A stretch of 64,000 bases of DNA from Ignavibacteria bacterium (GTDB taxonomy: Bacteria; Bacteroidota; Ignavibacteria; Kapaibacteriales; Kapaibacteriaceae): contig VGVV01000002.1 of assembly GCA_016873895.1 (NCBI GenBank), positions 100,188 through 164,187 of the forward strand. Direction: 5' to 3'. The notes beneath the pieces are model-generated. The model did not search any database. It saw nothing but the letters and a program-made list of their open reading frames with translations, and was not told the origin of the DNA. Positions within the stretch are counted from its first letter, which is position 1. Every line of letters begins with the position of its first letter. Shown piece by piece: positions 8,479-44,635 of this stretch. Made by a program: the position numbers and the translations under genes.

Positions 8479-9267
8479 TTGCACGTGTATATTCTGGTTA
8501 CCAACGACGATGGTATTGATTCAGCCGGTATTCATGCACTCGTGCATGTAATGCGTAGGCTAGGCGAGGTTGTTGTTGTTGCACCCGACAGACAACAAAG
8601 CGCTGTGGGACATGCATTAACGGTCTCAAGTCCGTTGCGCGCCACGCCCTTTCACCGAGATGGTGAGATGTTCGGATATGCCATCAACGGTACGCCTGCA
8701 GACTGCGTTAAGCTTGGAGTGAGTACGCTACTGGAACGTCGACCTGACATCGTCGTTAGTGGAATCAATCATGGCTCTAATGCCAGCGTAAATGCCATCT
8801 ACTCAGGTACAGTAAGCGCAGCCACGGAAGGTACACTGATGGGTATCCCATCAATGGCTGTTTCGCATACAAGCTTCGATCATCGTGCCGATATGACTCT
8901 TGCCGCTGAAGTTGCCTACACAGTGGCCTCGCGCCTTTTGGATCTGCATCTGCCGGCAGGCACGCTGCTGAATGTGAATGTGCCCGATGTAGACCGTTCC
9001 TCGTTCAAGGGGTACCGCATTGCGCGGCAGGGCTACAGCGAATGGAAAGACGCCTACGATACACGTATGGACCCCCAAGGTAGGCCATACTATTGGCTCT
9101 CTGGTGAGTTCGTTACCATCCAAGAACATGCAGACGCAGATGACCTTCTTGTTGCAGAGGGCTGGGCTGCCATTACCCCAATTCACTACGAGTTAACAAA
9201 CTTCGCATACCTCGAGCGGCTGCAGGCACATCCAGTGGTTGCAGAGATTTGTGCCTCTAATCGGTGA
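8479..9267 (+). CDS. surE: 5'/3'-nucleotidase SurE
   Basis: N-terminal ILVTNDDGIDSAGI motif and SurE-family conservation across 262 aa. Confidence 0.85.
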   Translation: MHVYILVTNDDGIDSAGIHALVHVMRRLGEVVVVAPDRQQSAVGHALTVSSPLRATPFHRDGEMFGYAINGTPADCVKLGVSTLLERRPDIVVSGINHGSNASVNAIYSGTVSAATEGTLMGIPSMAVSHTSFDHRADMTLAAEVAYTVASRLLDLHLPAGTLLNVNVPDVDRSSFKGYRIARQGYSEWKDAYDTRMDPQGRPYYWLSGEFVTIQEHADADDLLVAEGWAAITPIHYELTNFAYLERLQAHPVVAEICASNR

Positions 9268-10121
9268 AAGGTAAAACGCACATGACATCGCACATTAATG
9301 AAACGCTGCTCAGAGATATCGATGCACATGCCAAACGGCTACGTTTTCTCTACCGCATCAAGGGATTTGGCTACGAACGGGCTATTGAGTTGCCTCTTAT
9401 CGCAAGCCATATAACAGATTCGTTTAGTCAGCCCCTTCGCTATCTCGACATTGGTACCGGGCAATCGATTTTTCCATCCTGGGTTGCCAGCAAGTCCAAC
9501 TGGGATGTAACCTGTTTGGATAAGTTTAACTGGGTTGAAAAGCAGCACGAGTATGCCACAAAACTTGGGCTCGATGCGAAGCGCTTTCATGTTGTGCTTC
9601 AGGACTTTCTCGAAGCGGAGCTAGAGCCAGAATCATTTGATGTGATCACAAATATTTCTGTGATTGAACACTTTGAAGGGGGCTTGGATTCTGTTGCAAT
9701 GGAGAAAAGTGCCCGTCTTCTCAAGCCAGGTGGTAAGTACATACTCACGACTCCGCTGAATGAGGGATATGCACGCGACTGGTTCCTGCAGCAGGATGTC
9801 TATGGTGAGAAGTTTACCACCGAGCCTGTGTTCTTTCAGCGCCACTACGATGTTGAATCATTCAAGAAGTGCATCGTTGATGTGTCCGGGCTTGAAGAAG
9901 TTGCACGCACATACTTTGGCGACTATGACGTACCATTCTTCAACGATAAGATCGTTGAACAACATGGTATCAAGAAGATTGCCCGCACGTTGCGCCAAAT
10001 TGGCACCGTAGATCATGCCCTCAAGCATGGAAGTTATCGGGATGTTCCGGTGTCGATGAAGGACATGAAGATCTACACCTCTGCCGGTGTTTGTGTTGTG
10101 CTTACAAAGCCCAAGCGCTGA
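9264..10121 (+). CDS. Class I SAM-dependent methyltransferase
   Basis: SAM-binding motif LDIGTGQS and post-I motifs (DVITNISVIEHF). Overlaps the surE stop. Confidence 0.6.
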   Translation: MKGKTHMTSHINETLLRDIDAHAKRLRFLYRIKGFGYERAIELPLIASHITDSFSQPLRYLDIGTGQSIFPSWVASKSNWDVTCLDKFNWVEKQHEYATKLGLDAKRFHVVLQDFLEAELEPESFDVITNISVIEHFEGGLDSVAMEKSARLLKPGGKYILTTPLNEGYARDWFLQQDVYGEKFTTEPVFFQRHYDVESFKKCIVDVSGLEEVARTYFGDYDVPFFNDKIVEQHGIKKIARTLRQIGTVDHALKHGSYRDVPVSMKDMKIYTSAGVCVVLTKPKR

Positions 10122-11137
10122 TAGAGATGTATAAGCTGAGTAAGTGCTTGTGAGTATGGCTGCGTAGGCTCGGGCATGTTGCCAACGGCAACCTCTTCAA
10201 TGCAGACACTAATTGCACGGGCCAGATCGGAAGCATCCTCGTTGCGAAACGTCTTGCAGCCTGCCGGACGCAACACTGTGTCGGATGCGATCGTCCAGCG
10301 TCCCAGCTCCATGGCCTCTGTTACCGTAAGCGAGGGTCCACCTTCTGTTCGTGTTGGACGTATCACGATATGCGACTCCTTGACCAAAGGGGCCAGAGGT
10401 CCATTGAGATCACTCACCAAACAGACGCGTGCGTCGAGCTTGGCCGCTTTAACAATGCGATGATACAGCGCTTGATCGCGAACCCCGCCGATAGCAATGC
10501 AGACCCCGATTCGTTGATCTGTGACCTGCTGCAGTGCTTCGAGCAACACGTCGATACCATAAAGGTCTTTACCTTCAACAGACGTAACGGCTCCTGCATT
10601 TGCGAGGATTCTGATTGGTGCTGCTCGCCATTGCTCCGGTAGGGATGTGGGTAGCATGCCGTTCGATTCCCAGTTGCTCATTGGTAGGTTGGATGGGATA
10701 ACCTTGAGCCGCTTGTGGACTACACCAAGCTCGTTCTGCAGGTCGCGCGCGGCCTCATCGCTAATGGCAACAATGGCCTCTGCGCGCTCATAGGCCTTCC
10801 GCAAATCCCGAACAATGCCTGAATTCTTGAATTCACTTCTGTGGCGGAACGAATGCACTGTTACGATATACTTGGTGCCTAGCAAACGCCAGAGCTTACT
10901 ATACAAGAGCATCCAACGAAAGTTGCCCTCGTCCGTATGGTAGTGCACCGGAGTGCGAGTGAGAAGATGCCACGGGCGCCACAACGAGACGTGTTGCAGT
11001 CCCTCCGGCATGCCTCCCAGTGAGAGTCCGTGAACACTGATACCACGCCCTCGCAATGCCTCTAACAGTCGAACACAATGGATGGCCACGCCTCCAAAGG
11101 GAGGTGGAAAGGGGCCAAGAATGTGCATCGTTTTCAT
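10073..11137 (-). CDS. Glycosyltransferase family 4/group 1
   Basis: 354-aa protein with a GT-B fold pattern: N-terminal ILGPFPPPFGGVAIH and a C-terminal EGGPSLTVTEAMELG-type motif. Confidence 0.65.
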   Translation of the reverse strand: MKTMHILGPFPPPFGGVAIHCVRLLEALRGRGISVHGLSLGGMPEGLQHVSLWRPWHLLTRTPVHYHTDEGNFRWMLLYSKLWRLLGTKYIVTVHSFRHRSEFKNSGIVRDLRKAYERAEAIVAISDEAARDLQNELGVVHKRLKVIPSNLPMSNWESNGMLPTSLPEQWRAAPIRILANAGAVTSVEGKDLYGIDVLLEALQQVTDQRIGVCIAIGGVRDQALYHRIVKAAKLDARVCLVSDLNGPLAPLVKESHIVIRPTRTEGGPSLTVTEAMELGRWTIASDTVLRPAGCKTFRNEDASDLARAISVCIEEVAVGNMPEPTQPYSQALTQLIHLYQRLGFVSTTQTPAEV

Positions 11138-12015
11138 GGAACGATTGTTGGACGCAGTGACGATGATGGATGCACAAAGACGATGTTGTCGTTCACATGC
11201 GCTGCATCCATAGGGCAGCTGCGCAGTGTGCCATACTCGTTGATGAAGTAGGGGGCATACCCCAATGTTGCCATAGACTGTTTGAACTCGGTGCAGGTTT
11301 GTCCGCGAGCCTGCTGCAAGTGATCACTCAGCTCCATGATCACAATGGGGCGATGGTGCTGCAGCACAGAGCGAGCTCCTTCGATAACGTCGACCTCAGC
11401 CCCCTCTACATCGATCTTGATAAGATCTACGGGTTGCAGAGCATGCTGACGAACAAACGAATCGAGTCGGACAGATGGAATCTCGATGAACTCTGTTGAG
11501 ACGTTTGATTCGATGTAGACAGTGCTGTGTGTACCGGCGTTACGATCACTGGACAAATAAAGCTTTAGCGCTCCATCGACCGTTGACACTGCGGTCTGGT
11601 GCAGCGTAACGTTGCTGAGCGCATTGAGAGCGATGTTCTCGCGAAACCTTGCAGCATTTTGATCTTCCGGTTCAAACGAGTGTACGATCGTCTTACTGCT
11701 GGCCGCTGTTGCCATTGCCAGCGTTAGGGATCCCATCTGCGCGCCTACGTCGAGACATACGGAGCGTGGCTTCAGCACCCGGCGCAGGAAACGTATAGTG
11801 GGCAATTCATAGTCGCCAAACACATACAAGTGAGCCTGAAGATATTCCGTGATATCAAGCCGCATGCGAATCCCGAACCGAAGCGTCGAGGTCACCATCG
11901 TGCTGCTGCGCGGAACCAGATATGGGAAATACACGCGCATCAGGATTGAGTACTTCCCGTGTTCACGAGGGTAGAGCCGGCAAATGCTCTTGAAGAGTGT
12001 GCGGATGAGCGCCAT
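11134..12015 (-). CDS. FkbM-family methyltransferase
   Basis: LDVGAQMGSLTLAMA...HSFEPEDQN...ALNAL pattern typical of FkbM (TIGR01444). Overlaps the GT4 gene by 4 nt. Confidence 0.65.
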   Translation of the reverse strand: MALIRTLFKSICRLYPREHGKYSILMRVYFPYLVPRSSTMVTSTLRFGIRMRLDITEYLQAHLYVFGDYELPTIRFLRRVLKPRSVCLDVGAQMGSLTLAMATAASSKTIVHSFEPEDQNAARFRENIALNALSNVTLHQTAVSTVDGALKLYLSSDRNAGTHSTVYIESNVSTEFIEIPSVRLDSFVRQHALQPVDLIKIDVEGAEVDVIEGARSVLQHHRPIVIMELSDHLQQARGQTCTEFKQSMATLGYAPYFINEYGTLRSCPMDAAHVNDNIVFVHPSSSLRPTIVP

Positions 12016-12062: not shown

Positions 12063-12983
12063 TCACAAGAAACCTAGCAGCAAGGGTAATGTAAAGACCG
12101 ATACGATCGTCGAGGCCAGAATGGCTTGAGCAAGTACGTACGTGTCGAGTCCATACCTCTCGGCAAACACCATCGTAAGCATCATCGTAGGCATTGCTGT
12201 CTCGAGAATGGCACCGGTCTCAACAACTGGATCAGTGATGAGCCAGATAGTGGCCGATAACAGTATGAGTGGGACAATGATTGTGCGAATGGCAACAGCT
12301 GGAAAAACAATGAGAACATGCCGAGGATCTGGTATTCGTAGTGTTAATCCAATGCTGAACAGCATTAGCTGAGGGACAACTTTGCCAGCCGACGTGCAAG
12401 AGGTTGTTATCCACGGCGCAATAGGAATATCGAGGACATTGACGAGCATCGCGATCACGATGGTGATCATGGGCGGTAGAGTTGCAACCTGATAGAGTGC
12501 GTCGGCTATGCTCGAGCGGATGTCTGATGTGCCATAGCGAATGCAGATCATGGTCCCGACGGAGAATAGGAGCGGTGTCATTCCCAGGTAATCATACTCA
12601 ATGGGAATGTGCCGAGCCCCCTCTCCTAGCACAGCCGTTGTAATCGGCAGCCCAAGGTACATGGCATTGCACCAGGTGCCTGCAAGCATAAGAGCGCCTG
12701 CTGTAGGCAGGCCAATACGCCCCTTTAAGATCCAACCGTAGACAATGTAGGACAGGATAAGTCCCACGAGAACCGCACTAATCGAGACAGCAGGAATCGT
12801 CCAGAGATGTTCACCAATATGTACCTGACTCAGAGCACCGAAGGTAAGCAGCGGTATGAAGACGTTCAACACGATTGAGCCGATTACACGGCGAACTTCG
12901 GCGGCCGCAATTGCATCCGGGACGAAGCGATAGAGTACGCCGCATGCAAGTGGTATGCCGAGTTGTAGGAAGGCATCGAACAT
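12063..12983 (-). CDS. AEC (auxin efflux carrier/malate permease) family transporter
   Basis: Polytopic membrane protein about 306 aa with likely start MFDAFLQLGIPL. The AEC-family two-half topology is inferred from hydrophobic segment spacing. Confidence 0.55.
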   Translation of the reverse strand: MFDAFLQLGIPLACGVLYRFVPDAIAAAEVRRVIGSIVLNVFIPLLTFGALSQVHIGEHLWTIPAVSISAVLVGLILSYIVYGWILKGRIGLPTAGALMLAGTWCNAMYLGLPITTAVLGEGARHIPIEYDYLGMTPLLFSVGTMICIRYGTSDIRSSIADALYQVATLPPMITIVIAMLVNVLDIPIAPWITTSCTSAGKVVPQLMLFSIGLTLRIPDPRHVLIVFPAVAIRTIIVPLILLSATIWLITDPVVETGAILETAMPTMMLTMVFAERYGLDTYVLAQAILASTIVSVFTLPLLLGFL

Positions 12984-13079
12984 GGCGCAATCTACGAGCA
13001 ATTCACACTTTGGTGTTGTAAACGCACTGAGAAAGAGAAAGGTGGATGTTTGATGAACTAACTATTTGGAGACGATCTC

Positions 13080-13829
13080 ATGAATATTCGTGTTTGTGTT
13101 GCCATGTCTGCTCAATCAGAGCAGAAATTATTTTCTAAGCTGTTGCCATCATCAACAGATGGCATTCATGTAGTTGCTCGTCTGAGGGAAAACAAGCAAC
13201 TACGTGCAGAGCTTGCCAGCTGTATGGATGCTGTGGATCTGGTTCTGTATGAGCCCAATGCAGACGACGGAGCGAGCCTTGACCTGTGGTGTGATTCTCA
13301 GACCGAGGCTCAGCTGTGTTGCTTGTGTTCCGGGCCCGAGCAGGCTCTCGAGTGCTTGCAAGCAGGAGCGATGTTTGTTCTGTTTGATACTTCTACCGCG
13401 ATAGATGTTGATGTTGCCATACGACGTTGTAAACGCGTGTTGCAATCTCGGTCGCGCCAGATGATAGCCAGATCACCTGAGCCTGCTTATACACCAGAGG
13501 TAATAGCGCTTCCGCATATGCATGGTATTGAAGTTCGCGCATGCGAGTCCATTGTTCACGTTGAAGGCCAGGGTAACTACACATATGTTGTCTTTGCACG
13601 AGAGCCTAGGCTGTTGCTCTCGAGAACAATTGGAGATTACGAGGACGTGCTCGGTGGCGCTGGCTTTCTGCGTGTTCACAGAAGCCACATAGTAAACATG
13701 AAGCATGTTCGCCGAATTGTTCCGGGAAAGACACCAAGGCTGGTGCTCTCTAATGGCGATGTAGTATCTGTATCCGATCGGTATAAGGGGATACTGCTGC
13801 GCAAGCTGAATGTTGTAAAACGCAAGTAG
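13080..13829 (+). CDS. LytTR-family DNA-binding regulator with a degenerate (pseudo-)receiver N-terminal domain
   Basis: C-terminal LytTR motif FLRVHRSHIVNMKHVRRI. The N-terminal region is receiver-like but lacks the acidic pair, and the phosphoacceptor position reads DLVLYEP (Glu in place of Asp). Confidence 0.6.
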   Translation: MNIRVCVAMSAQSEQKLFSKLLPSSTDGIHVVARLRENKQLRAELASCMDAVDLVLYEPNADDGASLDLWCDSQTEAQLCCLCSGPEQALECLQAGAMFVLFDTSTAIDVDVAIRRCKRVLQSRSRQMIARSPEPAYTPEVIALPHMHGIEVRACESIVHVEGQGNYTYVVFAREPRLLLSRTIGDYEDVLGGAGFLRVHRSHIVNMKHVRRIVPGKTPRLVLSNGDVVSVSDRYKGILLRKLNVVKRK

Positions 13830-13832
13830 AGG

Positions 13833-15671
13833 TCAGCAATTCTGTCTAATGAACAAGCGAAGCATTGCAGCACGCCAAATAAAGAGAGCATGTTTGGTGT
13901 CGCCGTTGCGGTATGCTTGCAGCATTTCCTGCAGCTTGGGAACATTCACGAAGCTGTCAATCTCGTTCCATGATCCATCAATCGTGTAAGACAAAGCCCC
14001 CTTCAACCACTTGACATGACCCGGCGTGATAAAGCCTGTTTTATCCTTACGATCAAGGATTTCATTCGGAACGATACCTCGCATTGCTGCACGCAGAACG
14101 CGTTTGGTTTCGCCCCTGAAGATCTTGTCCTCTGTAGGCATGCTAAAGGCTAGATTAACGAGGCGGTGGTCGAGAAACGGCACGCGCGATTCGATACTGA
14201 AGGCCATCGAATTGATATCTTCTGTGTGCAGCAGTGTTGGAAGCAATGTTACACGAAGCAGATTATGCAGAAAGTCGTTTAGTCTGCATGAATGCGGCGT
14301 TGATAGACGAAGCGGATACGAGCCGGCTCCCTGCCGCATGATCCACGGATACGTGTGTTGGAATTCGGTCTCATAGAGGGACTGCTCGCCCCGTGATGCA
14401 GCGAGGATGCTTTTCGCCAGAATATTGAGTTTCTTCGAAGATGTATAGCCTTGTCTGGCAGAATGCGTTTGCAGCTCTTTGTATGCGTCTGCGTATCTGC
14501 CTTCTTTAATGTAGCCTCCAATAACTCGGTAGAGTGAATGCATGTAACCACCCAGCATCTCATCGGATCCTTGGCCATCAAGGACAACCTTGACACCGTG
14601 ACTGGCTGCCAGCCCCATGACAAAGTACTGCGAGATATACGACGACGAAGGCATTGGTGCATTCATCAGTCCAACAATCGTGTCGAGAGCCTGGGCTACA
14701 TCGGTGTCTGTTGGAGATATTTCATGAGAGCGTATTTGTGGATAGCGTGCCAAGAGATGTTGAATGTATGGCCGCTCATCAACGTCTCCTGTGCCAGTGT
14801 AGTATGCAGTGAAGGCGCGAACCTCGTGTTCCGAAGTTGAGGAGGCCAGAACTGCTGAAATAGACGTTGAGTCTAGACCGCCACTTAGGCATACGCCCAT
14901 CGGTACATCTCGACGGGACGTGATGCGTATTGAATCGATAAAGAGATCGCGGAATTGCTCGACGTTCTCTTCGAATGTGTTTGTTGGATTCTCGCTACTA
15001 ACTACATCGGCATACTGCCAAATCCGCAGCGCACCGTTTTTCCATTCAAGATTATGGGACGCCGGGAGCGCTAGGATGTCGTTAAAGTAGGTCTCCTCCC
15101 AGTGATGCATCCAACCAAGGTAGAGTCCACGAGCAACCTGTGCCTCGTTGAAGCCGCCACGAAATAGCGGTGTGGTTTTGAGCGCCTTGATCTCTGAAGC
15201 CAGATACAGCCGCTGATCGCGCATGGAATAATGGAATGGCTTGATTCCAAAGCGGTCACGGGAGCAAAAAAGAGTTCGATTGGCCTCGTCCCAGATGGCA
15301 AATGCCCACATCCCAATAAATCGTTCAACTGCCTGATATCCCCAGTGTGAAATGGCAGTAAGAACAACCTCGGTATCACCACTGGTAGCAAAGGTGTAGC
15401 CGGCCTCCTGCAATTCTTCACGAAGTTCAACGTAGTTATAAATTTCGCCGTTGAACGAAATCGTTAAACTGTCCCTCGTCATTGGTTGATGAGAGGCTGC
15501 TGAGAGATCGAGAATGCTTAGCCTATTGTGTCCAAGAAAGACATTTTTGGATTGCCACGTGCCACGATGGTCGGGTCCGCGGTGTCCCATTGCAGCGAGC
15601 ATAGCCGAGCCTGCTTGCAGCAGATCGTCGGCTGATCGTTGCGCGTCTATAATTCCTGCTATGCCACACAT
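13833..15671 (-). CDS. asnB: Asparagine synthase (glutamine-hydrolysing) family amidotransferase
   Basis: MCGIAGI N-terminal nucleophile Cys2, glutaminase domain, and the SGGLDSS PP-loop. Confidence 0.85.
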   Translation of the reverse strand: MCGIAGIIDAQRSADDLLQAGSAMLAAMGHRGPDHRGTWQSKNVFLGHNRLSILDLSAASHQPMTRDSLTISFNGEIYNYVELREELQEAGYTFATSGDTEVVLTAISHWGYQAVERFIGMWAFAIWDEANRTLFCSRDRFGIKPFHYSMRDQRLYLASEIKALKTTPLFRGGFNEAQVARGLYLGWMHHWEETYFNDILALPASHNLEWKNGALRIWQYADVVSSENPTNTFEENVEQFRDLFIDSIRITSRRDVPMGVCLSGGLDSTSISAVLASSTSEHEVRAFTAYYTGTGDVDERPYIQHLLARYPQIRSHEISPTDTDVAQALDTIVGLMNAPMPSSSYISQYFVMGLAASHGVKVVLDGQGSDEMLGGYMHSLYRVIGGYIKEGRYADAYKELQTHSARQGYTSSKKLNILAKSILAASRGEQSLYETEFQHTYPWIMRQGAGSYPLRLSTPHSCRLNDFLHNLLRVTLLPTLLHTEDINSMAFSIESRVPFLDHRLVNLAFSMPTEDKIFRGETKRVLRAAMRGIVPNEILDRKDKTGFITPGHVKWLKGALSYTIDGSWNEIDSFVNVPKLQEMLQAYRNGDTKHALFIWRAAMLRLFIRQNC

Positions 15672-15701
15672 GAGTGTCGAATCTACGGAATGCGCTAGTT
15701 T

Positions 15702-17438
15702 GTGGTGATGAAGTTGCTCTGGAAACTGCGAATCTTGCTAGGCCCGGTACGTCCATTTCTTGGTCGAAAGATCATAGATGGGATCGTGATTGCTCTAGAT
15801 CGGCTGCGGCTAGGCCGAGGATCAACAATTGCAATACACGAGGGCTTGTCTACCAATGCCGGTGTCTTCCCTCTGCCCTCTGCTGATTGGTTTCAGCGTT
15901 ATTCTGCTGATGTAGTATCATTTGCGCGTCAGATGCGCCAAGGCAAAGTCAATGCCTATGGAATTACGAACTGGAAGGTAGGCGACGACGATCCCCTTGG
16001 TGTTGACGTGCGGTCTACCCATGAACTAAGCAGAATGCATCACTGGTGTGCCTATGCTCTGGCAGTGCATATCGAACCGGAGAGAGCTGATGTTTGGTGT
16101 TCTGCATTCGAACATGAGCTGCGGTTGTTCGCCTCAACCTACACCAAGAGAAGCGTTCATTGGCGTTTTCCAATGGGTACTGCCATTCGTGTGTTCTCCA
16201 TGCTGGTTGCCTGGGATTGGATCAGGCGCAGCGGTTACGAGAATGCAGACACGGATAGATTTGTAGCAGCATGTGCGGCAGAGCATGGCATGCAGGTATA
16301 TCTGCATCGAGAGTCCAAGGGTGGGCTCTCAACATCGCACTTCGTTGCCAATCTTCTTGGGCTTGCGGCTGTAGAGGCGTATGTGCAGGGTAATCGTTCG
16401 TTGGCAAAATTATCTCGATACACACAAAAAGTGCTCGAACGCGAGGCGCAGCGGCAGATTTTACCCGACGGTATGGTGCAGGAAGCAAGCACCGGATACC
16501 ATCGCCAGGTGATAGACTTGTTTGTCATGATCGCAGTCTTGCGTCGTGGCGCAGGTAAGAATCTCTCAGCTTCTTTCCATGATGCTTTATCAAGGGGGCT
16601 TGCAGCACTTGATACGTTAGAGTCTATCGGAATGCCCCTGATAGGCGACAATGACGATGGTATGGCGCTCAAGCTTACGGGGTATGCTCCGCGTACAGAT
16701 ACAACACGCTACTACGCTCGCTACCTTGGGCTGGAAGCTGGTGCCTTGCACAACTGGACTTCCTACCCTGATTTTGGATTGGATATTTGGAGGGGTAGTC
16801 TGGGAGTTACCTTACGCAATGGATCAGTAGGACAATTCGGCAAGGGTGGGCACGCTCATCATGATCAAAATTCGATAACGGTTCGCTGTGATGGGCATCC
16901 GATTATTATCGATCCCGGTACGTCATTGTACACGTTCTCAGCAGCGGTACGAAATACAGAGCGCAGCGTACAGTTCCATAGCACAATGTGGCCAGCTGAC
17001 CAGGATCAGGGATACATGTATCGTGAACAGGATGGTTTGTTCTGGTTACCAGCGTTTGATCTACGAAGCGGTGTTTCGATGCGCAGCGAAACGCGATGGT
17101 ATGGAGAAGTCCATCATCGAAGCTCACTCGTGCATGCACGAGACGTAACAATCCAACCGCATGGCAGCATCATCTCTTGCATCGATACACTCCGCAGGGG
17201 CAGAAAAAATCCCATCAATGGCGAGCTCGTATTTGTGCTTGCCCCAGATATTCAGGTGCGTATGGCACATGATCATGCGGCACTCTCTGTAGGTGATACT
17301 CAGGTAATGCTGGAGTGGCAGGGGGCTTCGGGTTCCAGCCGAAAGCTGGTAACTGCCCCACGGTTCGCTCAAACAAGAGAATCAACAGCAATCGTATTAA
17401 GCGGAAATACCATCTCATGGCGGCTTCGCAGGAGCTAA
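15702..17438 (+). CDS. Heparinase II/III-like family protein (polysaccharide lyase-like)
   Basis: C-terminal GKGGHAHHDQNSITV...IIIDPGTSLYT motif characteristic of the Hepar_II_III domain. 578 aa. Confidence 0.6.
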   Translation: MVMKLLWKLRILLGPVRPFLGRKIIDGIVIALDRLRLGRGSTIAIHEGLSTNAGVFPLPSADWFQRYSADVVSFARQMRQGKVNAYGITNWKVGDDDPLGVDVRSTHELSRMHHWCAYALAVHIEPERADVWCSAFEHELRLFASTYTKRSVHWRFPMGTAIRVFSMLVAWDWIRRSGYENADTDRFVAACAAEHGMQVYLHRESKGGLSTSHFVANLLGLAAVEAYVQGNRSLAKLSRYTQKVLEREAQRQILPDGMVQEASTGYHRQVIDLFVMIAVLRRGAGKNLSASFHDALSRGLAALDTLESIGMPLIGDNDDGMALKLTGYAPRTDTTRYYARYLGLEAGALHNWTSYPDFGLDIWRGSLGVTLRNGSVGQFGKGGHAHHDQNSITVRCDGHPIIIDPGTSLYTFSAAVRNTERSVQFHSTMWPADQDQGYMYREQDGLFWLPAFDLRSGVSMRSETRWYGEVHHRSSLVHARDVTIQPHGSIISCIDTLRRGRKNPINGELVFVLAPDIQVRMAHDHAALSVGDTQVMLEWQGASGSSRKLVTAPRFAQTRESTAIVLSGNTISWRLRRS

Positions 17439-17447
17439 ATTCGTAGC

Positions 17448-18782
17448 ATGAAGCTCTCAGAGCACCTAGGAAAGATATCGTGGTCACTAGCCGACAAACT
17501 TCTTTACGTTGGTTACGGCTTTGTGCAGTTCATGCAAATCAATGCGCTGCATGCAGGTAATGCAGGTAATCTTAAACTGGCCACTACTACATATGGCATC
17601 TTCACGCTTGTGGTTACGCTGAACACATGGATTACCATGGTTGCCGATGGCTCGGCACTAGCTGGAATCATTCAGTTCGGGGTGAGACGTGAGGATCGCA
17701 AACGTGTAAACATGCTGGCGGTAACGATCTACGCCGTCATCGTCCTTTTGAGCAGTGTATTCTTCTACTCCACAGCCAGCATCATCGAGCATTCGTTCGG
17801 CATTCAGGATTTTACTGTTGTTGCCACGTGGCTGCCGATATACCTTGTAGTAACAATGCCTCGAATGGTCTGCATGAAGTTGCTCTTAAGAGATATGGGG
17901 ATGAGTAAGATCTTCTTTGCTGACCTAGTCTGGTTTGGAGTGCGCACACTCATGACCATTATGGCGATGAACGATAATGCACTTGTGAACCTCGAAGACA
18001 TTCTGATGATAGACCTCGTTGGTATGGCGTCTTGCTCGGTTGTGATGATGCTGTTAACGCTAAAGGAGCTGGAGTTTTCATGGACCGGTGGCATGTCACT
18101 TGGTACATACCTTCGATATGGAGTGCCCCTTTCACTTGCAGGCGCACTCAGTACTGCGCCCCGCATGCTTGATGTGTATATCATTGCCGCATTTTTCGGT
18201 GTAGGTGTTGTGGGCATTTACAATCCGGCGAAGAATCTTTACAGAATATTCGAGCAGGCATATGATGCAGTTGTAACGTTGCTCTATCCAGCTGCTGTGC
18301 GGATGTTTAGTCAAAACCGAATGTCGGATCTGCAGATACTTATTACCAAGGTAATCAGCTTCACACTTTTACCAACCGCAGTTGCTGTGGTTGCTCTCGA
18401 ATCAGGCCTAGGGGCATTCTTGATCAATTTTCTGCTCCCGAAGTACAATGCAGTGGTAGGCCATTTTAATGTGCTAACGATCGCAGCTCTCGCGATGCCC
18501 TTTGGCCTGATGGCAGGAATCATCCAGGCTATGGGCCGCAGCAGTGCCTTAGTGCTGTATTCAGCCATTAGCGTTGCGTCGTCATTCCTCGTGCTAACAG
18601 TCATTGGGTATGCCAATAAACTCGAGTGGATTGGACTTGGCCTTGTCACCTACACGGTAGTATCTGGTGCGCTGTACATGAACCATGTCCGGCGGGAGAT
18701 TCATGTGCCGATGAGCGCTATTCTAAGCACACTAGGTGATGTGAAGCGAATGGCTCTTACTCGATTGGGAGGCAGAAGATAA
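17448..18782 (+). CDS. wzx: Oligosaccharide flippase (Wzx/MOP superfamily polysaccharide biosynthesis protein)
   Basis: 444-aa protein with an estimated 12 or more TM segments and polysaccharide-biosynthesis-protein N-terminal conservation (LLYVGYGFVQFMQINAL). Confidence 0.65.
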   Translation: MKLSEHLGKISWSLADKLLYVGYGFVQFMQINALHAGNAGNLKLATTTYGIFTLVVTLNTWITMVADGSALAGIIQFGVRREDRKRVNMLAVTIYAVIVLLSSVFFYSTASIIEHSFGIQDFTVVATWLPIYLVVTMPRMVCMKLLLRDMGMSKIFFADLVWFGVRTLMTIMAMNDNALVNLEDILMIDLVGMASCSVVMMLLTLKELEFSWTGGMSLGTYLRYGVPLSLAGALSTAPRMLDVYIIAAFFGVGVVGIYNPAKNLYRIFEQAYDAVVTLLYPAAVRMFSQNRMSDLQILITKVISFTLLPTAVAVVALESGLGAFLINFLLPKYNAVVGHFNVLTIAALAMPFGLMAGIIQAMGRSSALVLYSAISVASSFLVLTVIGYANKLEWIGLGLVTYTVVSGALYMNHVRREIHVPMSAILSTLGDVKRMALTRLGGRR

Positions 18783-19564
18783 TGTGGCTACATCTACTTC
18801 GCATCAGACGAGCACTTCGGTACCGGCCCATGGAGTGGATACTCAAGGCGCTCTTGCTGGCAGGATGCTTCATCGTGCTTGCTGGATGTTGGTGGTTTGC
18901 CACTTCTGTCTTAATCGATACGGGCGTTCAGGCATCGCAGGTGCGGATTGACGTCTTGATAACACCTAAAGCGGATGTTTCCCAGATGCAGCAGTGTGTA
19001 AGGCTACTGCGAAACAGAGATGATATCTTGGTGGTGCGTCTGCTGGATTCACGTGCCGTGTGGTCCATGTTTCAGCAGGAGCTTGGCATGCAGGCAGGGG
19101 GCTTGTCCGATATCGCATCTATGCCGTCGGTTGTGCAGCTGCAACTTCAACCAGCCCACGCATCACTGGCAACTGCTGAGTTGGTACGCAATACGGTGAA
19201 GTCTAGGTACGCGTCGATTGTTGACCGCGTACTCATTCCTACCGAGGCCTTTGCTGAGTACGATAAAAGTAGGCTTGACGTTTCCTCTGCCCGTATTGCG
19301 GGCTCGGGTGTGCTCTTCCTAGTCGTGCTCATCGTATCCTTCTGGCTCTCGGGTAGTTTTGCTGCTGCAATTCTGGCGCACCATGCAAGTCCGTCGATGG
19401 GGCAGGCCCCACGCTGGGGTATGGTTAGCGTTATAGGGCTCACAGTAGGTGTTTCAATTCTGGCCATTGGATTGGGCCTTGTGTGCCTTGTAGCAATTTC
19501 GGATGCTGTGGGTGACCATGTGGGCTGGTTGGTGCCTTTTCTTGACGTGGTCCGTGTGCAGTGA
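18782..19564 (+). CDS. FtsX-like membrane protein (hypothetical)
   Basis: Basic N-terminus, TM1, about 140-aa extracytoplasmic domain, then 2-3 TM segments. Translationally coupled on both sides (ATAATG with wzx, GTGA with lptF/G). Confidence 0.4.
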   Translation: MWLHLLRIRRALRYRPMEWILKALLLAGCFIVLAGCWWFATSVLIDTGVQASQVRIDVLITPKADVSQMQQCVRLLRNRDDILVVRLLDSRAVWSMFQQELGMQAGGLSDIASMPSVVQLQLQPAHASLATAELVRNTVKSRYASIVDRVLIPTEAFAEYDKSRLDVSSARIAGSGVLFLVVLIVSFWLSGSFAAAILAHHASPSMGQAPRWGMVSVIGLTVGVSILAIGLGLVCLVAISDAVGDHVGWLVPFLDVVRVQ

Positions 19565-20646
19565 TACGAATTATCACACGATATGTGCTGCGGCAATATC
19601 TAGTAACAGTGCTCTTTGCAGTGCTGGCATTAACGGTACTTTTTGTGCTTGTTGATCTTTTCAATCAGCTCGATAAGTTCCTCGACCATAAAACACCAGG
19701 CTCGGCAATCGTTGAATACTACTTCAGCTATGTGCCCCAAATTGTCGAGCTCATCACCCCAATTGCGATCATGCTGTCTGGGCTGTTCTCTATCGGAAGA
19801 CTCAGCAACCTGAATGAGATCACGGCGATGCGTGCTGGCGGGATCAGCACAACGCGGCTATTGTTGCCCATACTCGCTGTGGGACTGCTCTTAAGTGCCG
19901 CCCAGCTATACTTCAACGGTTGGGTTGTTCCAGTTGCAAGTAGAGCGAAGGTCGAAATTGAACGACGTTACCTTGGAAACGATGCTGGTAGAAATGTCCT
20001 GAACGACATGTTCTTTCGTGAGCAGCCAATGCTCAACATCACAATTAGCCGATATGATATCGATGCTCGTCAGGGTAGTGCCGTAACGATCGAGGAGTTC
20101 TCGTCATCCGAAAAGCCCCGTATGGTCAAGCACTGGGACGTTGGCACGATCATGTGGGATAGCACTTCGTCGTCATGGGTTGGTCGTGGTATTGTTCAAC
20201 GCGCGTTTTCATCGGATCCTGTACGAATCGAATCCATTGCTCAGGGCCGGATTCCCTTTACAACCCAGCCAAGTGAGATAATGCGTTTGCAGCAGACGAT
20301 TGATGAGATGACATTTACGGATATCGAGCAGCATATCAGGACACTGCGTAAAGGTGGTAAAGAGACCCGTGGTATCGAGATCGATTTGGCAGGTCAGTGG
20401 GCATTCCCATTTGTGAACGTTATCGTAATCATGCTCACTGCGCCCTTTGCGGCCGTACGTATGCGAGGCGGCGCAGCAGTGAATATCTCGCTCGCCATGA
20501 TTGTATCGATTAGCTACATTGCATTCACAAAAATTGGACAGGCAGTTGGAACGAACTCTGATTTGCCTGTATGGGTGGTTGGGTGGAGTTCGAATATCAT
20601 TTTTGGATGTCTGGGATTGATGGTGGCGTATCGATTTCGCAAGTAA
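19561..20646 (+). CDS. LptF/LptG family LPS export permease
   Basis: YjgP/YjgQ-family N-terminus IITRYVLRQYLVTVLFAVLALTVLFVLVDL. GTG start. 361 aa. Confidence 0.85.
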   Translation: MIRIITRYVLRQYLVTVLFAVLALTVLFVLVDLFNQLDKFLDHKTPGSAIVEYYFSYVPQIVELITPIAIMLSGLFSIGRLSNLNEITAMRAGGISTTRLLLPILAVGLLLSAAQLYFNGWVVPVASRAKVEIERRYLGNDAGRNVLNDMFFREQPMLNITISRYDIDARQGSAVTIEEFSSSEKPRMVKHWDVGTIMWDSTSSSWVGRGIVQRAFSSDPVRIESIAQGRIPFTTQPSEIMRLQQTIDEMTFTDIEQHIRTLRKGGKETRGIEIDLAGQWAFPFVNVIVIMLTAPFAAVRMRGGAAVNISLAMIVSISYIAFTKIGQAVGTNSDLPVWVVGWSSNIIFGCLGLMVAYRFRK

Positions 20647-39457: not shown

Positions 39458-41554
39458 ATGTTCAGTGGAGTATATCAAATGCGGATTTGTTGCGCGTTTT
39501 GCGTTTTTGTTTTGGCGGTATGTAGTATTCACGCCCAAACTACTGTGCTTGCACTCGAAGCACCCGTCGGTGGAATTACATATTATACCTCACGTGATAC
39601 AATTATCCAGATAAGATGGTCTGGTGTAGAGGATACTATTGCTGTGCAGCTTGATTATAGTCCCGACGATGGCCGCAACTGGATTGTGATTGCAGACAGC
39701 GCAAAGGGCCTAACCTACAGTTGGAACGTTAAGGGGCTTGCCCCCTCTACAAACTACCGTGTACGGGTAGTGCAGCTGCGTCTGCCAGGTGCAAATGATA
39801 ACGTGATCTATAGCGGACATTCAAGTCCGGTTGAGGATGCGTATTGGGCACCAGACAACGACCGTGTTGTTAGTGTTGCTGGCGAGGCACACGTATGGAG
39901 CTCAAAGGCCAGTGCGAACTCACCGCTGTTAGCATTGCCTACTGGTAGGGCATCGTACTCTGGAGTGCGCTGGTCTGCAGATTCATCAAAGATTATCACG
40001 TGCTCCGATGATAACGCAGCGAAGATTGTTGATGCTGTTTCGAACACGATCGTAAGCTCGATCACACATCCTGATGTGGTTACAAAAGTTGAGTTAGACC
40101 CCACGGGGTCGTGGCTATTCACAAAATGCGACGACAACCGCACCCGCGTCTACAACCTGCCTGGTGCGGTACCGCAGGCTGTGCATAATGCGGGTTCCAG
40201 CATGGATGACATGGTGATCAATGCTGATGGTACGCGCGTAGTGCTCTGTGCGGGAGATGCGCGTGTGTTTGGGCGCAGAACAGGTCTGCCGAATACGTTT
40301 AACAAGCATGCAATATGCGCTTTGAGCGCAGCCTTTTCTCCCGATGGAACGTTGATCTGTTCGATTGGTGGAGACGCCACGATACGTCTGTGGAATCAGT
40401 CAACCGCGGTGGAATCATGGAGTGTTTCCGATGTGGCCAACCGTGAGGGAGTTCGCTGCGTAACGTTTGCCCCAGATGGTGCATCGGTCGCTGTTGGAAT
40501 GTCTGATTCAACAGTAACGATATGGGACGTTGCAACCGGCGTTCTCAAAGGAAAGCTCAGCGGATATAACGGCGCAGTTCGCATGGTTACATACTCGCCC
40601 GATGGTACGATGATTGCTGGTGCTTCGGACGACAACTTTGCCCGTCTTCATAGAGCAGATGACTTCTCTCCAATTGCAAGTTTTCAGCATGGAAATGATG
40701 TCAACGTTGTACGTTGGTCGGAACGTGGCGATCGCCTACTCACGACGTCAAGAGACGGCACCGCGCGCATTTGGCAGGTTCTACCAGTAATCCTCCTGGC
40801 CGACACGAGTGATCTGTTTGCCATTGCTCCGCCACCACCGTCTTTTGTGCGGTTCACGGCGTCCGGAGATACGCTTGAAATCGGCGAAACAACGACAATC
40901 AACTTCAGAACAGAGGGTAGCCAGTTTCTTGGTCTTGCAGACATAGACAGCGTAGAGCTGCGAATCTCCTATGACGCATCTGCGCTACGCTGGGTCTCGA
41001 GCTCAAAGGAGCCGTTTGCATCATTAGATGAAACTATCACCGATTCGGCGGGCGTGCGTCGCATGCGTGATGTCGTGTTTTTCCGCATTCCACTAGACAC
41101 CACAGATGCAGAGCTCTTTACGGCCACTCTTCAGGCTACACTTGGTCAAGACAGCATCACAGCGATGACCTACGATCGTATTACTCAGATCGGTAGGGGG
41201 CCGGGAACACGCATTGAAAAGCGGAGCGAACCAATCCTCATCCGTGGAATTTGTAGAGTGGGCGGGGGGCCGAGGATGTTTAATCCACTTGGAGAGCCCC
41301 TTACGGCGCGTGGCATCGTAAAGCCCTACGGGATTGTTCTCGAGGGTACACTGGCAGAGAATGCGCCAGCAACGATCGATGTTTATGATCTAGGTGGAAG
41401 ATTGTTGTGGTCTGACTGCACAACACCTTCGGAAGAAACCCAGCGAGCATATGTTCGTACACTCCCCTCCGAGATCATCAGCGGTGTGGCCGTTGTGGTT
41501 GTGCGAACGGAGCATCAGCAAGCATCAACAGTTATCTCGGAGGCATCACGCTGA
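39458..41554 (+). CDS. WD40 beta-propeller repeat protein with an Fn3-like N-domain and a T9SS-type C-terminal sorting domain
   Basis: Signal peptide and multiple WD40 repeats (IRLWNQ..., VTIWDV..., ARIWQV). C-terminal ...IDVYDLGGRLLWS...GVAVVVVRTEHQ resembles a T9SS CTD. Confidence 0.6.
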   Translation: MFSGVYQMRICCAFCVFVLAVCSIHAQTTVLALEAPVGGITYYTSRDTIIQIRWSGVEDTIAVQLDYSPDDGRNWIVIADSAKGLTYSWNVKGLAPSTNYRVRVVQLRLPGANDNVIYSGHSSPVEDAYWAPDNDRVVSVAGEAHVWSSKASANSPLLALPTGRASYSGVRWSADSSKIITCSDDNAAKIVDAVSNTIVSSITHPDVVTKVELDPTGSWLFTKCDDNRTRVYNLPGAVPQAVHNAGSSMDDMVINADGTRVVLCAGDARVFGRRTGLPNTFNKHAICALSAAFSPDGTLICSIGGDATIRLWNQSTAVESWSVSDVANREGVRCVTFAPDGASVAVGMSDSTVTIWDVATGVLKGKLSGYNGAVRMVTYSPDGTMIAGASDDNFARLHRADDFSPIASFQHGNDVNVVRWSERGDRLLTTSRDGTARIWQVLPVILLADTSDLFAIAPPPPSFVRFTASGDTLEIGETTTINFRTEGSQFLGLADIDSVELRISYDASALRWVSSSKEPFASLDETITDSAGVRRMRDVVFFRIPLDTTDAELFTATLQATLGQDSITAMTYDRITQIGRGPGTRIEKRSEPILIRGICRVGGGPRMFNPLGEPLTARGIVKPYGIVLEGTLAENAPATIDVYDLGGRLLWSDCTTPSEETQRAYVRTLPSEIISGVAVVVVRTEHQQASTVISEASR

Positions 41555-43683
41555 TGCACCGCTTGATTCTACTCGCTCTTTGCATTCCACTGATTGGCCA
41601 GTCGTTGCAAGCTCAATGGTGGAAGGTGACCCTTCCCGAGGATGTGTGGTTGTCCCAGATAGGCTTTAGTGCAAATTTTGGGTTGTTGCAGCATACAGGT
41701 GTCTTTACGCTACCAGAGGCGCCAGTTTGCTGTGCTCCATATGAAGGGGCAAGAGGTACAACGTTCTCCTTGTCGACTTTTGCGCGTCACGAAATCACGA
41801 AGCATATGCGACTTGCACTTCGTGGTACGTTTGTTCCTGTAAACGGATTGTTTGTCCAGGAACAATCCGTTCTCGTAAGTGGTGGACAGCAGGCTCTTAC
41901 ACGCACGTTTCTCGACACGAAGGCCAACTGGATAGGCGGAGAATTTCTCATTGATCTTCGGGTTGTGAATCCCCTGCGATTTATGGGTGGCGTAGCATTC
42001 GGAAGTTACCTAAGCCCCACGTTCACGCAACGGGAAGTTCTGGTTGAGCCTTCGATAGGTACCTTTGAAAACGGACGTCGCGAGCGGAATGAAGTTCTCA
42101 ATAAAGACCTGCAGAACATGGTCTCGCCCGCACTAGGTGCTGTTGTTGGCATCGGCTACGACCTGCCCATGACAGAAAATCATTCTGTGGTGTTAACCCC
42201 CGAGGTGCTCTACACGATACCACTCTCGAAGAATCGCAGCGATGTTGATTGGACAACGAACCTCTTGCGCGCAGGTGTATCTGTTGCCTTTACCATGAAT
42301 GCACCAGAGCCCCCTACTCCGGTAGAGCGTCGTAGAGAAGAGTTCGTTGATTCACTTCTGGTAGAGATCGCCCCAGATGGTCAGGAGTCTCGTGTGCGTG
42401 GTATTGGTCGCATTGAGTTAGACACGGTTGTTGAAACGGATCTTGTAACAATTACCGAGCGAGCTTACCGCACAGATACGGTGTTCTACCCAAGACCTCC
42501 CGAATTGCTTGCAAAGATCAAGGCTCGTGCAGTTGAAGCATCTGGTGCACTGAAAGACGTGTTTACGATACACGTATCTACGCAATATGTAACCGAGGCT
42601 CTTCCTGTTCTGCCAGCTGTGTTCTTTGAATCTCAGACAATTACTATCTCGCCGCGCTATCACCAAGTTGGTAGTGGCTCAGAATTCAAGCTTGCAGACG
42701 TAGCCCCACGAACAACGGCTGTGCACCGAGATATTCTCAATATTCTCGGTGAGCGGATGAAAAATAATGCAGGCGCTACTGTGCGCCTTAAGGGTACGGC
42801 CGACCCAACAACCGAGAGCTCGAATTGCGAGCTTGCAAAAAAGCGTGCAACTGCTGTGAAAGATTATTTGATTCGTGTCTGGGGTATTGAAGATTCTCGG
42901 ATTGCCATTCAAGATGCGGGTGGATCTTGTGCGCCTGATAAGCCAACAAGAAGACAATCCGAGGAAGGATTTGCAGAGAACCGCCGAGTTGAAATCTATT
43001 CAGATAATCTTGATGTGCTTGGATCAGTAGCCAAGCGCAGGTTTAATGAGGCACGCACCATCGATCCACCGAGGCTTCAGTTTGATCCTACCGGTTCCAG
43101 TACTCAGTATGTAACGGATTGGGAGTTAGAGGCTATAACAGGTCAGCAGCAATTGTTCTCGCAAAGTGGTAAGGGGCTACCAACCGTTACGATGCAGGAT
43201 CTTTCAATAGCCGTGGCCGACAAAATGCGATCGGGCGAGCCAGTGAATGTGCGTTTAAAGATCAATGGACTTCGTAGAGCAACAGCGTCGGATAATGCTT
43301 CGCTGACTGTTAAAAAGGACACGATGAACATAGAGCTGGAGCGTCTCACGCTCACACTCTTTGAAGTTGCTTCAGATGAAATATCTGTAATTGCCGAAGA
43401 GCAGATCAAGTCGTTTGTTGAGAACGTACCAGCCGGCTCAACTGTTATCGTGCGCGGCTTTGCTGATATGCTTGGCAATGCCGAGTTTAACAAGAAGCTC
43501 TCACAAAAACGTGCGGATGCTGTTTGCGAAACGATTCAGAAGCACCTTCGCAAGAAGGTTAATATTCAGTGCAACGACATCACGACCGACAAGTTTCCTC
43601 CGGGTATTGAATCGTACAACACGCCAGAGGAGCGGTTCCTAAGCCGTACGGTGCAGATTGAGGTTAAGAAGACACGCAAGTAA
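41554..43683 (+). CDS. OmpA-family protein with two OmpA-like peptidoglycan-binding domains
   Basis: Signal peptide. Two OmpA_C-like segments (LKGTADPTTESSNCELAKKRATAVKDYL...NRRVEI and VRGFADMLGNAEFNKKLSQKRADAV...SRTVQIEV). Start overlaps the previous stop as ATGA. Confidence 0.7.
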   Translation: MHRLILLALCIPLIGQSLQAQWWKVTLPEDVWLSQIGFSANFGLLQHTGVFTLPEAPVCCAPYEGARGTTFSLSTFARHEITKHMRLALRGTFVPVNGLFVQEQSVLVSGGQQALTRTFLDTKANWIGGEFLIDLRVVNPLRFMGGVAFGSYLSPTFTQREVLVEPSIGTFENGRRERNEVLNKDLQNMVSPALGAVVGIGYDLPMTENHSVVLTPEVLYTIPLSKNRSDVDWTTNLLRAGVSVAFTMNAPEPPTPVERRREEFVDSLLVEIAPDGQESRVRGIGRIELDTVVETDLVTITERAYRTDTVFYPRPPELLAKIKARAVEASGALKDVFTIHVSTQYVTEALPVLPAVFFESQTITISPRYHQVGSGSEFKLADVAPRTTAVHRDILNILGERMKNNAGATVRLKGTADPTTESSNCELAKKRATAVKDYLIRVWGIEDSRIAIQDAGGSCAPDKPTRRQSEEGFAENRRVEIYSDNLDVLGSVAKRRFNEARTIDPPRLQFDPTGSSTQYVTDWELEAITGQQQLFSQSGKGLPTVTMQDLSIAVADKMRSGEPVNVRLKINGLRRATASDNASLTVKKDTMNIELERLTLTLFEVASDEISVIAEEQIKSFVENVPAGSTVIVRGFADMLGNAEFNKKLSQKRADAVCETIQKHLRKKVNIQCNDITTDKFPPGIESYNTPEERFLSRTVQIEVKKTRK

Positions 43684-43699: not shown

Positions 43700-44635
43700 T
43701 TATCTAACTACGAGCTCGGACCCACATGGTTGTCCGAGCTCGTTGCGTTTGCACACAAGCACAGCGCCAGGTAATCCCTCAAGTATGCTCATGCGTTGCT
43801 CTACTGGCCCCTTGGCTAAGAGCTTGCCGCGCAGGTCAAAGATCTCGATTGTTGTGATAGTGCACTTCTGCTGATCGATATCCTGAACGGAAGTTGTACC
43901 AGTAGTGACGAATGTTGCACCGGTGCTCCAGAAGCCGTTGCCGTTCCAGTCAACAACACTCAGTTGGTCGGACTTGAGAGCTGCGCTGCCTGATGGCAAG
44001 CCCGCATCAAACGTAACATCCACCCATGTAGGGGGCTTGCGGTAGGCGGGCGTATCGTCAATAATGAGGCGCACCATGTAATCACCCTTGGCTAGATAGT
44101 ATATGCCAGGGATGTTGTAGAAGTTTGGGTTCGGTGTTACGGGGTCGTATACATAGGAAGTTGTTGGATTCTGGGCGTTGTTGTCTTGTCCCCAGCGCGG
44201 ACCATTGGCCGACATAACATGTTGCACAACGATGCGCTCGTTGCCGTCGATGCGGATACCTTGGACTGTGAACATGATGGTCTTCCAGCCCGACGCAGTA
44301 ACGTCTGCCGTGGCCGAACCCAATGTGTTGTAGGGGAAACAATACTGTGTTGGCGGGATCGTTCCTTCGGACGCATCGCCGGTAATGCGAACTTCATCTT
44401 TGCCTGTGCCAGCCCCATAGTAGATCATTACGCCAATAATGGCGCACGGCCTATTCGGGGAGATGATGACCGATTCTTCCCAGCCCTCGCGTGCGGGATT
44501 GGTCGATCCAAACACCCCGTTGTCGATGCGAATTGTATCCGGTGCTGATCTGGCTGTTAGCGATGCCAGCATGAGCATCAGCACAATGAACCATGAGCGA
44601 AAAGACATAGTAGGCCGCCACAATGATGAGGCCAA
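43700..44635 (-). CDS. Secreted hypothetical protein, possible T9SS cargo
   Basis: Signal peptide (FIVLMLMLASLTA). C-terminal IEIFDLRGKLLAKG...GAVLVCK weakly resembles a T9SS CTD. Confidence 0.4.
   Translation of the reverse strand: MASSLWRPTMSFRSWFIVLMLMLASLTARSAPDTIRIDNGVFGSTNPAREGWEESVIISPNRPCAIIGVMIYYGAGTGKDEVRITGDASEGTIPPTQYCFPYNTLGSATADVTASGWKTIMFTVQGIRIDGNERIVVQHVMSANGPRWGQDNNAQNPTTSYVYDPVTPNPNFYNIPGIYYLAKGDYMVRLIIDDTPAYRKPPTWVDVTFDAGLPSGSAALKSDQLSVVDWNGNGFWSTGATFVTTGTTSVQDIDQQKCTITTIEIFDLRGKLLAKGPVEQRMSILEGLPGAVLVCKRNELGQPCGSELVVR
43710..43743. terminator. 12-bp perfect inverted repeat between convergent genes, overlapping the 3' coding end of the minus-strand gene
   Basis: ACGAGCTCGGAC-N10-GTCCGAGCTCGT. 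Confidence 0.4.

Follow-up and report, generated by a model that had tools for sequence, protein, structure and literature searches.

The 64,000-nucleotide stretch of contig VGVV01000002.1 analyzed here (the window) carries, inside a polysaccharide locus, a gene for a LytTR regulator whose N-terminal domain resembles a receiver but reads Glu where the phosphoacceptor Asp is expected. The first-pass annotation took this Asp-to-Glu replacement for a phosphomimetic one and proposed a phosphorylation-independent, constitutively active regulator of the AgrA/AlgR type. The locus raises the question of whether the N-terminal domain is a receiver at all and, if so, whether its Glu is a device that holds the protein in an active state or a mark left at a site that no longer works.

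Domain organization of the regulator

The open reading frame of the regulator is intact and begins with an ATG codon that has GGAG 8 nt upstream; its coordinates, with those of its domains and neighbors, are collected in Table 1. The C-terminal domain has the LytTR β-fold. The Pfam LytTR model (PF04397), which has a cutoff of 22.6 bits, matches it at 52 bits with E=8.3e-14, and likewise matches 25 of 25 aligned relatives; the LytTR motif FxRxHRSxxVN is kept in the family. This match upholds the original assignment of a canonical C-terminal LytTR domain. Among 5.8 billion proteins searched, 38 full-length homologues of ~250 residues were found, all annotated with LytTR alone, which were aligned together (alignment A1). 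With NCBIfam models, the single sequence gave only sub-threshold matches to BtsR/LytR equivalogs, confined to the C-terminal part.

Table 1. Features of the regulator and its surroundings, in positions of the window
Feature	Position	Strand	Basis and remarks
GT4 glycosyltransferase and FkbM-type methyltransferase genes	10073..12015	-	Pfam; upstream of the permease
AEC-family (Mem_trans) permease gene	12063..12983	-	PF03547; divergent from the regulator
Divergent promoter region, permease/regulator	12984..13079	.	Comparison of orthologous regions: conserved sequence blocks
Pseudo-receiver/LytTR regulator gene	13080..13829	+	ORF, 249 aa; range includes the stop codon
Pseudo-receiver (degenerate REC) domain	13080..13454	+	Residues 1-125, (βα)5 fold
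M9/S10, position of the Mg2+-binding acidic pair (CheY D12/D13)	codons 13104..13109	+	MAFFT with CheY/BtsR, HHalign
Glu58, phosphoacceptor position (CheY D57)	GAG, 13251..13253	+	Three alignments and the end of β3 in the model
Cys83, conserved Thr/Ser position (CheY T87)	TGT, 13326..13328	+	HHalign, opposite the T of BtsR 'FLTA'
Asp103, conserved Lys position (CheY K109)	GAT, 13386..13388	+	MAFFT, HHalign
Inter-domain linker	13455..13499	+	Residues 126-140; AF2 pLDDT <50 at 127-135
LytTR DNA-binding domain	13500..13814	+	Residues 141-245; Pfam match 154-237
AsnB-like glutamine amidotransferase gene	13833..15671	-	Pfam Asn_synthase/GATase_7; convergent with the regulator
Heparinase II/III-like, Wzx-like flippase, 260-aa protein and LptF/G permease block	15702..20646	+	Pfam

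The N-terminal domain is a degenerate receiver

The Pfam receiver model (PF00072) does not match the single regulator sequence even at E<=1, and among 25 relatives it gives weak matches in nine (best 2.2e-4). Because neither Pfam nor NCBIfam found a receiver in the single sequence, profile methods were needed. Used as an HMMER profile, alignment A1 matches many solved receivers, among them MrkE (2qv0; 3.1e-5), VraR (4.7e-5) and CheY (1.6e-4). Aligned by HHalign to a second alignment (A3) of 31 canonical LytTR response regulators, which include Escherichia coli BtsR from NC_000913, A1 gives a probability of 100% and E=2e-54 over 246 columns, with the receiver part included. The family profile against canonical regulators reaches ~1e-35 across positions 3–244.

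The AF2 model obtained from A1 has a mean pLDDT of 86. It displays a complete (βα)5 fold at residues 3–125, with pLDDT values of ~82–93 in this domain, followed by a disordered linker (residues 127–135) and a β-rich C-terminal domain. The top Foldseek match of the model is full-length ComE (4cbv); the target TM scores are 0.65–0.75 for receiver domains and ~0.8 for LytTR domains. The N-terminal domain is a genuine homologue of receiver (REC) domains in degenerate form, and the receiver-like character that had been read from its length and hydrophobic pattern is borne out by both the profile homology and the predicted fold. In length and in its succession of REC domain, linker and LytTR domain, the protein is organized as are the canonical LytTR regulators (AgrA, ComE, AlgR, LytR, BtsR/YpdB, MrkE), to which its homology extends from end to end.

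Replacement of the catalytic residues

The segment DLVLYEP, in which the acceptor site had been placed, spans residues 53–59. Four independent methods put E58 at the position of the phosphoacceptor. The HMMER family profile sets it opposite the phosphoacceptor Asp of MrkE and VraR, MAFFT opposite that of E. coli CheY and BtsR, and HHalign in the acceptor column of the 31 canonical LytTR regulators; in the AF2 model, E58 lies at the C-terminal end of β3 (strand 54–57). The remaining catalytic positions are occupied by M9 and S10, C83 and D103, which brings the replacements to five out of five, and the Tyr switch (CheY Y106) is occupied by V100 in the HHalign alignment. In addition, the β3-α3 loop is two residues shorter than in canonical LytTR regulators. 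These replacements, and the failure of PF00072 to detect the domain, set the protein apart from the canonical members with which it otherwise shares its architecture.

The acceptor Asp, the acidic pair, and the Thr/Ser and Lys that characterize a phospho-accepting response regulator are all missing, and what is left corresponds to a pseudo-receiver, that is, a receiver homologue that keeps fold and homology without the key residues of phosphotransfer. The first-pass annotation had recognized part of this. Its Glu at the acceptor site stands, since the alignment with receivers has E58 and no conventional Asp in the acceptor column, and so does the absence of the acidic pair, for which M9 and S10 are found; the losses of the Thr (C83), the Lys (D103) and the Tyr switch (V100) had gone unmentioned.

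Neighboring acidic residues were considered as alternative acceptors and rejected. The invariant D53 aligns with the 'PD' that opens β3 in canonical LytTR regulators (BtsR D48), and D62 and D63 are located in the β3-α3 loop, where D63-G64 constitutes the usual 'DG'. A sequencing error at codon 58 was likewise rejected, as the same Glu is present in two relatives from other samples (P0001 and P0002).

A discrete family in Kapabacteria

The family was delimited by an exhaustive HMMER search with A1 over 1.84 billion cluster representatives. It comprises ~56 representatives that score between 351 and 186 bits, every one of them with a degenerate site. The next 125 matches lie below a score gap, at ~150–128 bits, and 116 of them read DDDTK or EDDTK. 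The degenerate regulators are a discrete family, sharply set apart from canonical regulators, rather than a one-off. The acceptor position is Asp in 40 members, Gly in nine and Glu in six, and the Thr/Ser position is Cys in 19, Ser in 13, Thr in ten and Gly in nine. The Lys is kept in only two of the 56, the basal P0053 and P0055, and two acidic residues at the position of the acidic pair are found only in the basal P0059. No member of the family combines the acidic pair with the Lys, and none of 39 close relatives has either.

The family comes from metagenome-assembled genomes (MAGs) of Kapabacteria/"Ignavibacteria" (Bacteroidota). The GTDB-representative genomes that contain true orthologs (loci L005–L009) are designated Candidatus Kapaibacterium, "Ignavibacteria bacterium" or "bacterium", and the NCBI taxonomy places Kapaibacterium in the family Kapaibacteriaceae of the Bacteroidota.

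The family is monophyletic in a neighbor-joining tree with canonical regulators at the root. In this tree, the Glu of the window clade is a terminal change inside a clade of the Cys83/Asp type, and is common only to P0001, which differs by 2 nt, and P0002, with 73% identity. These three sequences, in which Glu58 is fixed, originate from three different samples. Glu occurs separately in P0054, P0058 and P0059, and arose about four times in the family, once in the lineage of the window and independently on about three other branches.

The two domains diverge at different rates. Mean pairwise identity across the family is 24% in the N-domain versus 52% in the LytTR domain, and between the window protein and P0002 the pN values are 0.26 and 0.07, respectively. 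Because synonymous sites have reached saturation even in the comparison with the nearest relative that is divergent (pS 0.77–0.78), only the argument that pN is far below pS can be used, and not a dN/dS ratio. The N-domain is under purifying selection. Its length and (βα)5 fold are kept throughout the family, with no truncations or frameshifts, and the scaffold residues R4, D53, G64, A113 and R116 are conserved in 75–96% of members. Together with L67, they are the best-conserved positions of the domain, which are mostly scaffold positions common to canonical LytTR regulators. The conservation of P59, D62, C81 and C117 is specific to the family; P59 and D62, which lie beside the acceptor, are conserved at 86–89%.

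Genomic context and search for a kinase

The regulator occupies a constant place in eight of eight orthologous loci, between an AEC permease and an AsnB-like amidotransferase. The permease adjoins it in all seven loci in which the upstream side is present, and the amidotransferase in seven of eight, with one inserted gene separating the two in L088. The shared order runs from the GT4 glycosyltransferase, the FkbM-type methyltransferase and the AEC permease (minus strand) through the regulator (plus) and the AsnB-like gene (minus) to the heparinase-like protein, the flippase, a protein of no recognized family and LptF/G (plus). The GT4 and FkbM genes are conserved in the orthologous loci, the downstream envelope block has the same gene order in L001–L004, L088 and L089, and the genes beyond AsnB differ in L087. 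This order is the same around orthologs with Asp, with Glu and with Gly as the acceptor residue. The GT4, FkbM, AsnB-like, heparinase-like, Wzx-like and LptF/G genes on the two flanks agree with the placement among polysaccharide genes that had been noted at the outset.

The neighborhood of ~20 kb is collinear as a whole, including the upstream housekeeping genes rng, dxr, rseP and surE. Adjacency to the regulator is weak evidence for a regulon because the housekeeping genes are equally collinear, and synteny was rejected as strong proof of one.

No histidine kinase (HisKA/HATPase_c) was found among the 56 scanned ORFs of at least 150 aa in the 64-kb window, nor in the available sequence around the eight orthologous loci, five of which were covered over the full ±10 kb and three of which (L087, L089 and L091) are limited by their contigs. 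The statement that no kinase lies nearby holds for the window and extends to seven orthologous loci for which flanking DNA was available. In this respect the regulator differs from E. coli btsR, which adjoins btsS.

Other features of the window and its orthologs were recorded along the way. The 260-aa ORF between the flippase and LptF/G (18782–19564, plus strand) has no Pfam match, and a protein of like length and without a Pfam family is located at the same position in L001–L004, L088 and L089; it may represent an unrecognized envelope-glycan enzyme. A methyltransferase ORF (9264–10121, plus strand) and the GT4 ORF (10073–11137, minus strand) are convergent, with 49 nt shared between their 3' ends, and the gene calls of L001 and L002 show the same overlap. 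More distant loci contain an extra gene of ~700 codons between the methyltransferase and the permease (L003 6032–8143; L004 6060–8174; L088 6945–9002), whose product is a Kelch/lectin protein bearing a T9SS sorting tail; the window lacks this gene. Elsewhere in the window, the gene for a 698-aa WD40 β-propeller protein overlaps by 1 nt with the next one, for a 709-aa protein with OmpA-like domains (39458–43683, plus strand), which is an unusual pairing. No Pfam family was matched at E<=0.001 by the ORFs at 43700–44635 (minus strand, 311 aa) and 54460–56124 (plus strand, 554 aa), or at E<=0.01 by the 181-aa ORF at 63357–63902 (minus strand).

The divergent promoter region

The gene calls of homologs and a conserved promoter box indicate that the AEC permease probably starts at the ATG at 12983 (MFDAFLQ...) and not at the TTG at 13001. 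The permease and AsnB-like genes, both on the minus strand, have a TAGATTGC or TAGATTCG box 3–6 nt upstream of their ATG codons. In the window these boxes are located at 12987–12994 and 15678–15685 (minus strand), and they are found at the same places in L001–L004. The -7 promoter element of Bacteroidota is TAnnTTTG, which both boxes resemble. This arrangement suggests that the transcripts of the two genes may be leaderless or near-leaderless.

Between the divergent promoters, inspection by eye showed that several orthologs contain ATGTAA[AC] and [TC]GTAA[AT] blocks that are 19–20 bp apart (window 13000–13055; L003 9900–9960; L004 9895–9950; L006 3130–3190), and in the subclade of the window the pair reads GCAAT / TGTAAA. 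In distant orthologs, a palindrome of the type CTATGAC-N7-GTCATAG overlaps the putative -7 box of the regulator. A search of the regions preceding the regulator in 11 orthologous loci for LytTR-type operators, 9-mer direct repeats with a spacing of 18–23 bp, gave none that were significant (shuffle p>=0.28), and a repeat search that covered both intergenic regions beside the gene and four orthologous ones gave no direct repeats. The sites that the regulator binds may be located elsewhere. The pattern GTAA-N17-21-GTAA occurs seven times in the window versus 4.15 expected, with none at the locus; the true spacing of the conserved pair is 19–20 bp. The conserved blocks constitute a candidate operator without statistical support, and are presented as a lead.

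Discussion

The regulator is probably an orphan atypical LytTR response regulator derived from a canonical REC-LytTR ancestor and kept at one vertically inherited locus of Kapabacteria, a lineage that has been little studied. Its receiver has lost every residue for Mg2+ binding and for phosphotransfer catalysis, and retains the fold. That histidine kinases do not switch the protein is well supported by the sequences and by the predicted model as a property of the whole family, and its N-terminal domain is almost certainly incapable of being phosphorylated. The phosphorylation independence first suggested for this one protein is in this form sustained, given the degenerate sites in all ~56 members and the lack of a nearby kinase.

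In ComE, dimers mediated by the REC domains position the LytTR domains in tandem (PMC4005675). Because of this precedent, we propose that the pseudo-receiver most likely survives as a scaffold for dimerization and orientation that would place two LytTR domains on the DNA. The activity of the protein would depend on how much of it is present, or on some input that does not involve phosphorylation of Asp. Glu58 would represent a lineage-specific substitution at a defunct site, limited to the window sequence and to relatives with at least 73% identity. The flanking and invariably linked AEC permease and the AsnB-like and other envelope-glycan genes are putative targets, weakly inferred from their position. 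Three observations sit less easily with this account. No LytTR-type direct repeat turned up beside the gene. The dimer of ComE D58E (PMC4005675) leaves room for Glu58 to contribute to the conformational equilibrium, and the old pocket may still be somewhat constrained, as suggested by the Asp kept in 40 of the 56 members and by the conservation of P59 and D62.

A different function for the domain would be that of a sensor, re-purposed most concretely as a thiol redox or metal switch of the kind found in RitR and HP1021, or as a binding site for a ligand related to the permease substrate, which would gate dimerization and DNA binding. The domain is rich in cysteine: eight of its 125 residues are Cys (6.4%), whereas the figure for 26 other window proteins is 0.93%. 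At the position of C81, canonical LytTR regulators have an invariant Phe, and 77% of the family have Cys; C117 is kept in 68%, and C83, next to E58, occupies what used to be the Thr site. Redox-controlled dimerization is documented for atypical regulators that bear cysteines (PMC12632262, PMC5965902), and the divergent pair of regulator and permease is kept wherever the upstream side is present. However, C80 and C81 are inside β4, where any receiver has small, hydrophobic residues, and their role may be structural only; in several members of the family the domain contains just one or two cysteines; and the regulator displays no metal-binding motif or family match. We consider a sensor unlikely. 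The fuller proposal, in which the cysteine-rich pseudo-receiver of Kapabacteria is a new thiol/redox, metal or metabolite input module that gates LytTR dimerization and controls the AEC permease together with glycan genes of the LPS/O-antigen type, is decidedly unlikely; if it were true, the protein would be the first mechanistically defined LytTR-type pseudo-receiver regulator.

The phosphomimetic proposal holds that orthologs with Asp58 are switched by an unlinked kinase, and that the Glu of the window protein imitates the phosphorylated state and locks the regulator in its active form. Glu at the acceptor site does activate some canonical regulators, and within the LytTR family itself the D58E substitution of ComE yields a stable REC dimer (PMC4005675). 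Receivers without the Asp, moreover, have Glu in its place more often than any other residue (26%; PMC4395418), and the fixation of Glu58 in sequences from three samples also speaks for the proposal. The orthologs with Asp, however, are as devoid of the acidic pair and the Lys as the window protein, and are unlikely substrates for a kinase. The proposed action of a phosphomimetic Glu runs through contacts with the conserved Thr and Lys (PMC12632262), and presupposes a pocket in which both are intact. Since Cys83 and Asp103 take their places here, this mode of action is unavailable. Even in intact receivers Glu alone is often insufficient, and in ChxR replacement of the acceptor-site Glu does not abolish activity (PMC4395418). 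Nine orthologs have Gly at the same site and in the same genomic context, and the acceptor residue looks freely exchangeable because Asp, Gly and Glu occur in one conserved context. An activating Glu58 is for these reasons improbable, and the functional part of the first-pass annotation does not carry over; Glu58 probably reflects drift at an already defunct site and not an activating device.

That the N-domain is a functionless, decaying remnant, on a stand-alone LytTR protein or an incipient pseudogene, might be read from its roughly fourfold faster evolution relative to the LytTR domain and from its having slipped below recognition by Pfam, but is highly improbable in view of a pN far below the saturated pS, of the length, fold and scaffold residues kept across the family, and of the confident AF2 model.

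The preferred reading, an orphan pseudo-receiver regulator, finds counterparts among known proteins. Streptococcal HdrRM and BrsRM are kinase-independent LytTR factors encoded beside a gene for a membrane protein; their regulators contain nothing like a receiver, and each shares a transcript with the gene for a small membrane inhibitor. The regulator described here differs from this type in that it has a full pseudo-receiver, and its neighbor is a divergent AEC permease of the 10-TM type. The atypical regulators ChxR, HP1043/HsrA, RitR, GlnR and FrzS, and the plant PRRs, have likewise kept the receiver fold, lost catalytic residues and are orphans, with outputs other than the LytTR domain found here. 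A Glu at the acceptor position is shared with ChxR, the plant PRRs and the quarter or so of Asp-less receivers mentioned above (PMC4395418, PMC12632262). By contrast, Asp-less receivers usually keep the first acidic residue and the Lys (PMC4395418), both of which are absent here, and the degeneration of this pseudo-receiver is unusually complete. The engineered variants ComE D58E, a member of the same regulator family whose Glu even has the same residue number (PMC4005675), and NtrC D54E have otherwise intact pockets, with acidic pair, Thr and Lys, whereas the window regulator has none of these.

Pseudo-receivers are common and mostly orphans (PMC12632262, PMC4395418). They make up several percent of receiver domains, and atypical orphan regulators that contain them occur in all major regulator families; the way in which those of bacteria are switched is for the most part unexplained (PMC12632262). 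LytTR proteins are unmentioned in the 2025 review of pseudo-receivers (PMC12632262), and no characterized LytTR-type pseudo-receiver was found in the literature searched.

An acceptor-site Glu in orphan atypical regulators is already well documented, and in that respect the finding is ordinary. What it adds is, in the first place, a set of orthologs with Asp, Glu or Gly in the same context, which represents a natural series for the role of the acceptor residue once the pocket has been lost. Furthermore, the family lies below the threshold of PF00072 and would be missed by surveys that rely on this model, such as PMC4395418. Finally, the pairing of the regulator with its permease and envelope-glycan neighborhood is one of the few links between a regulator and a locus for which a proposal can be made in Kapabacteria, which are uncultured.
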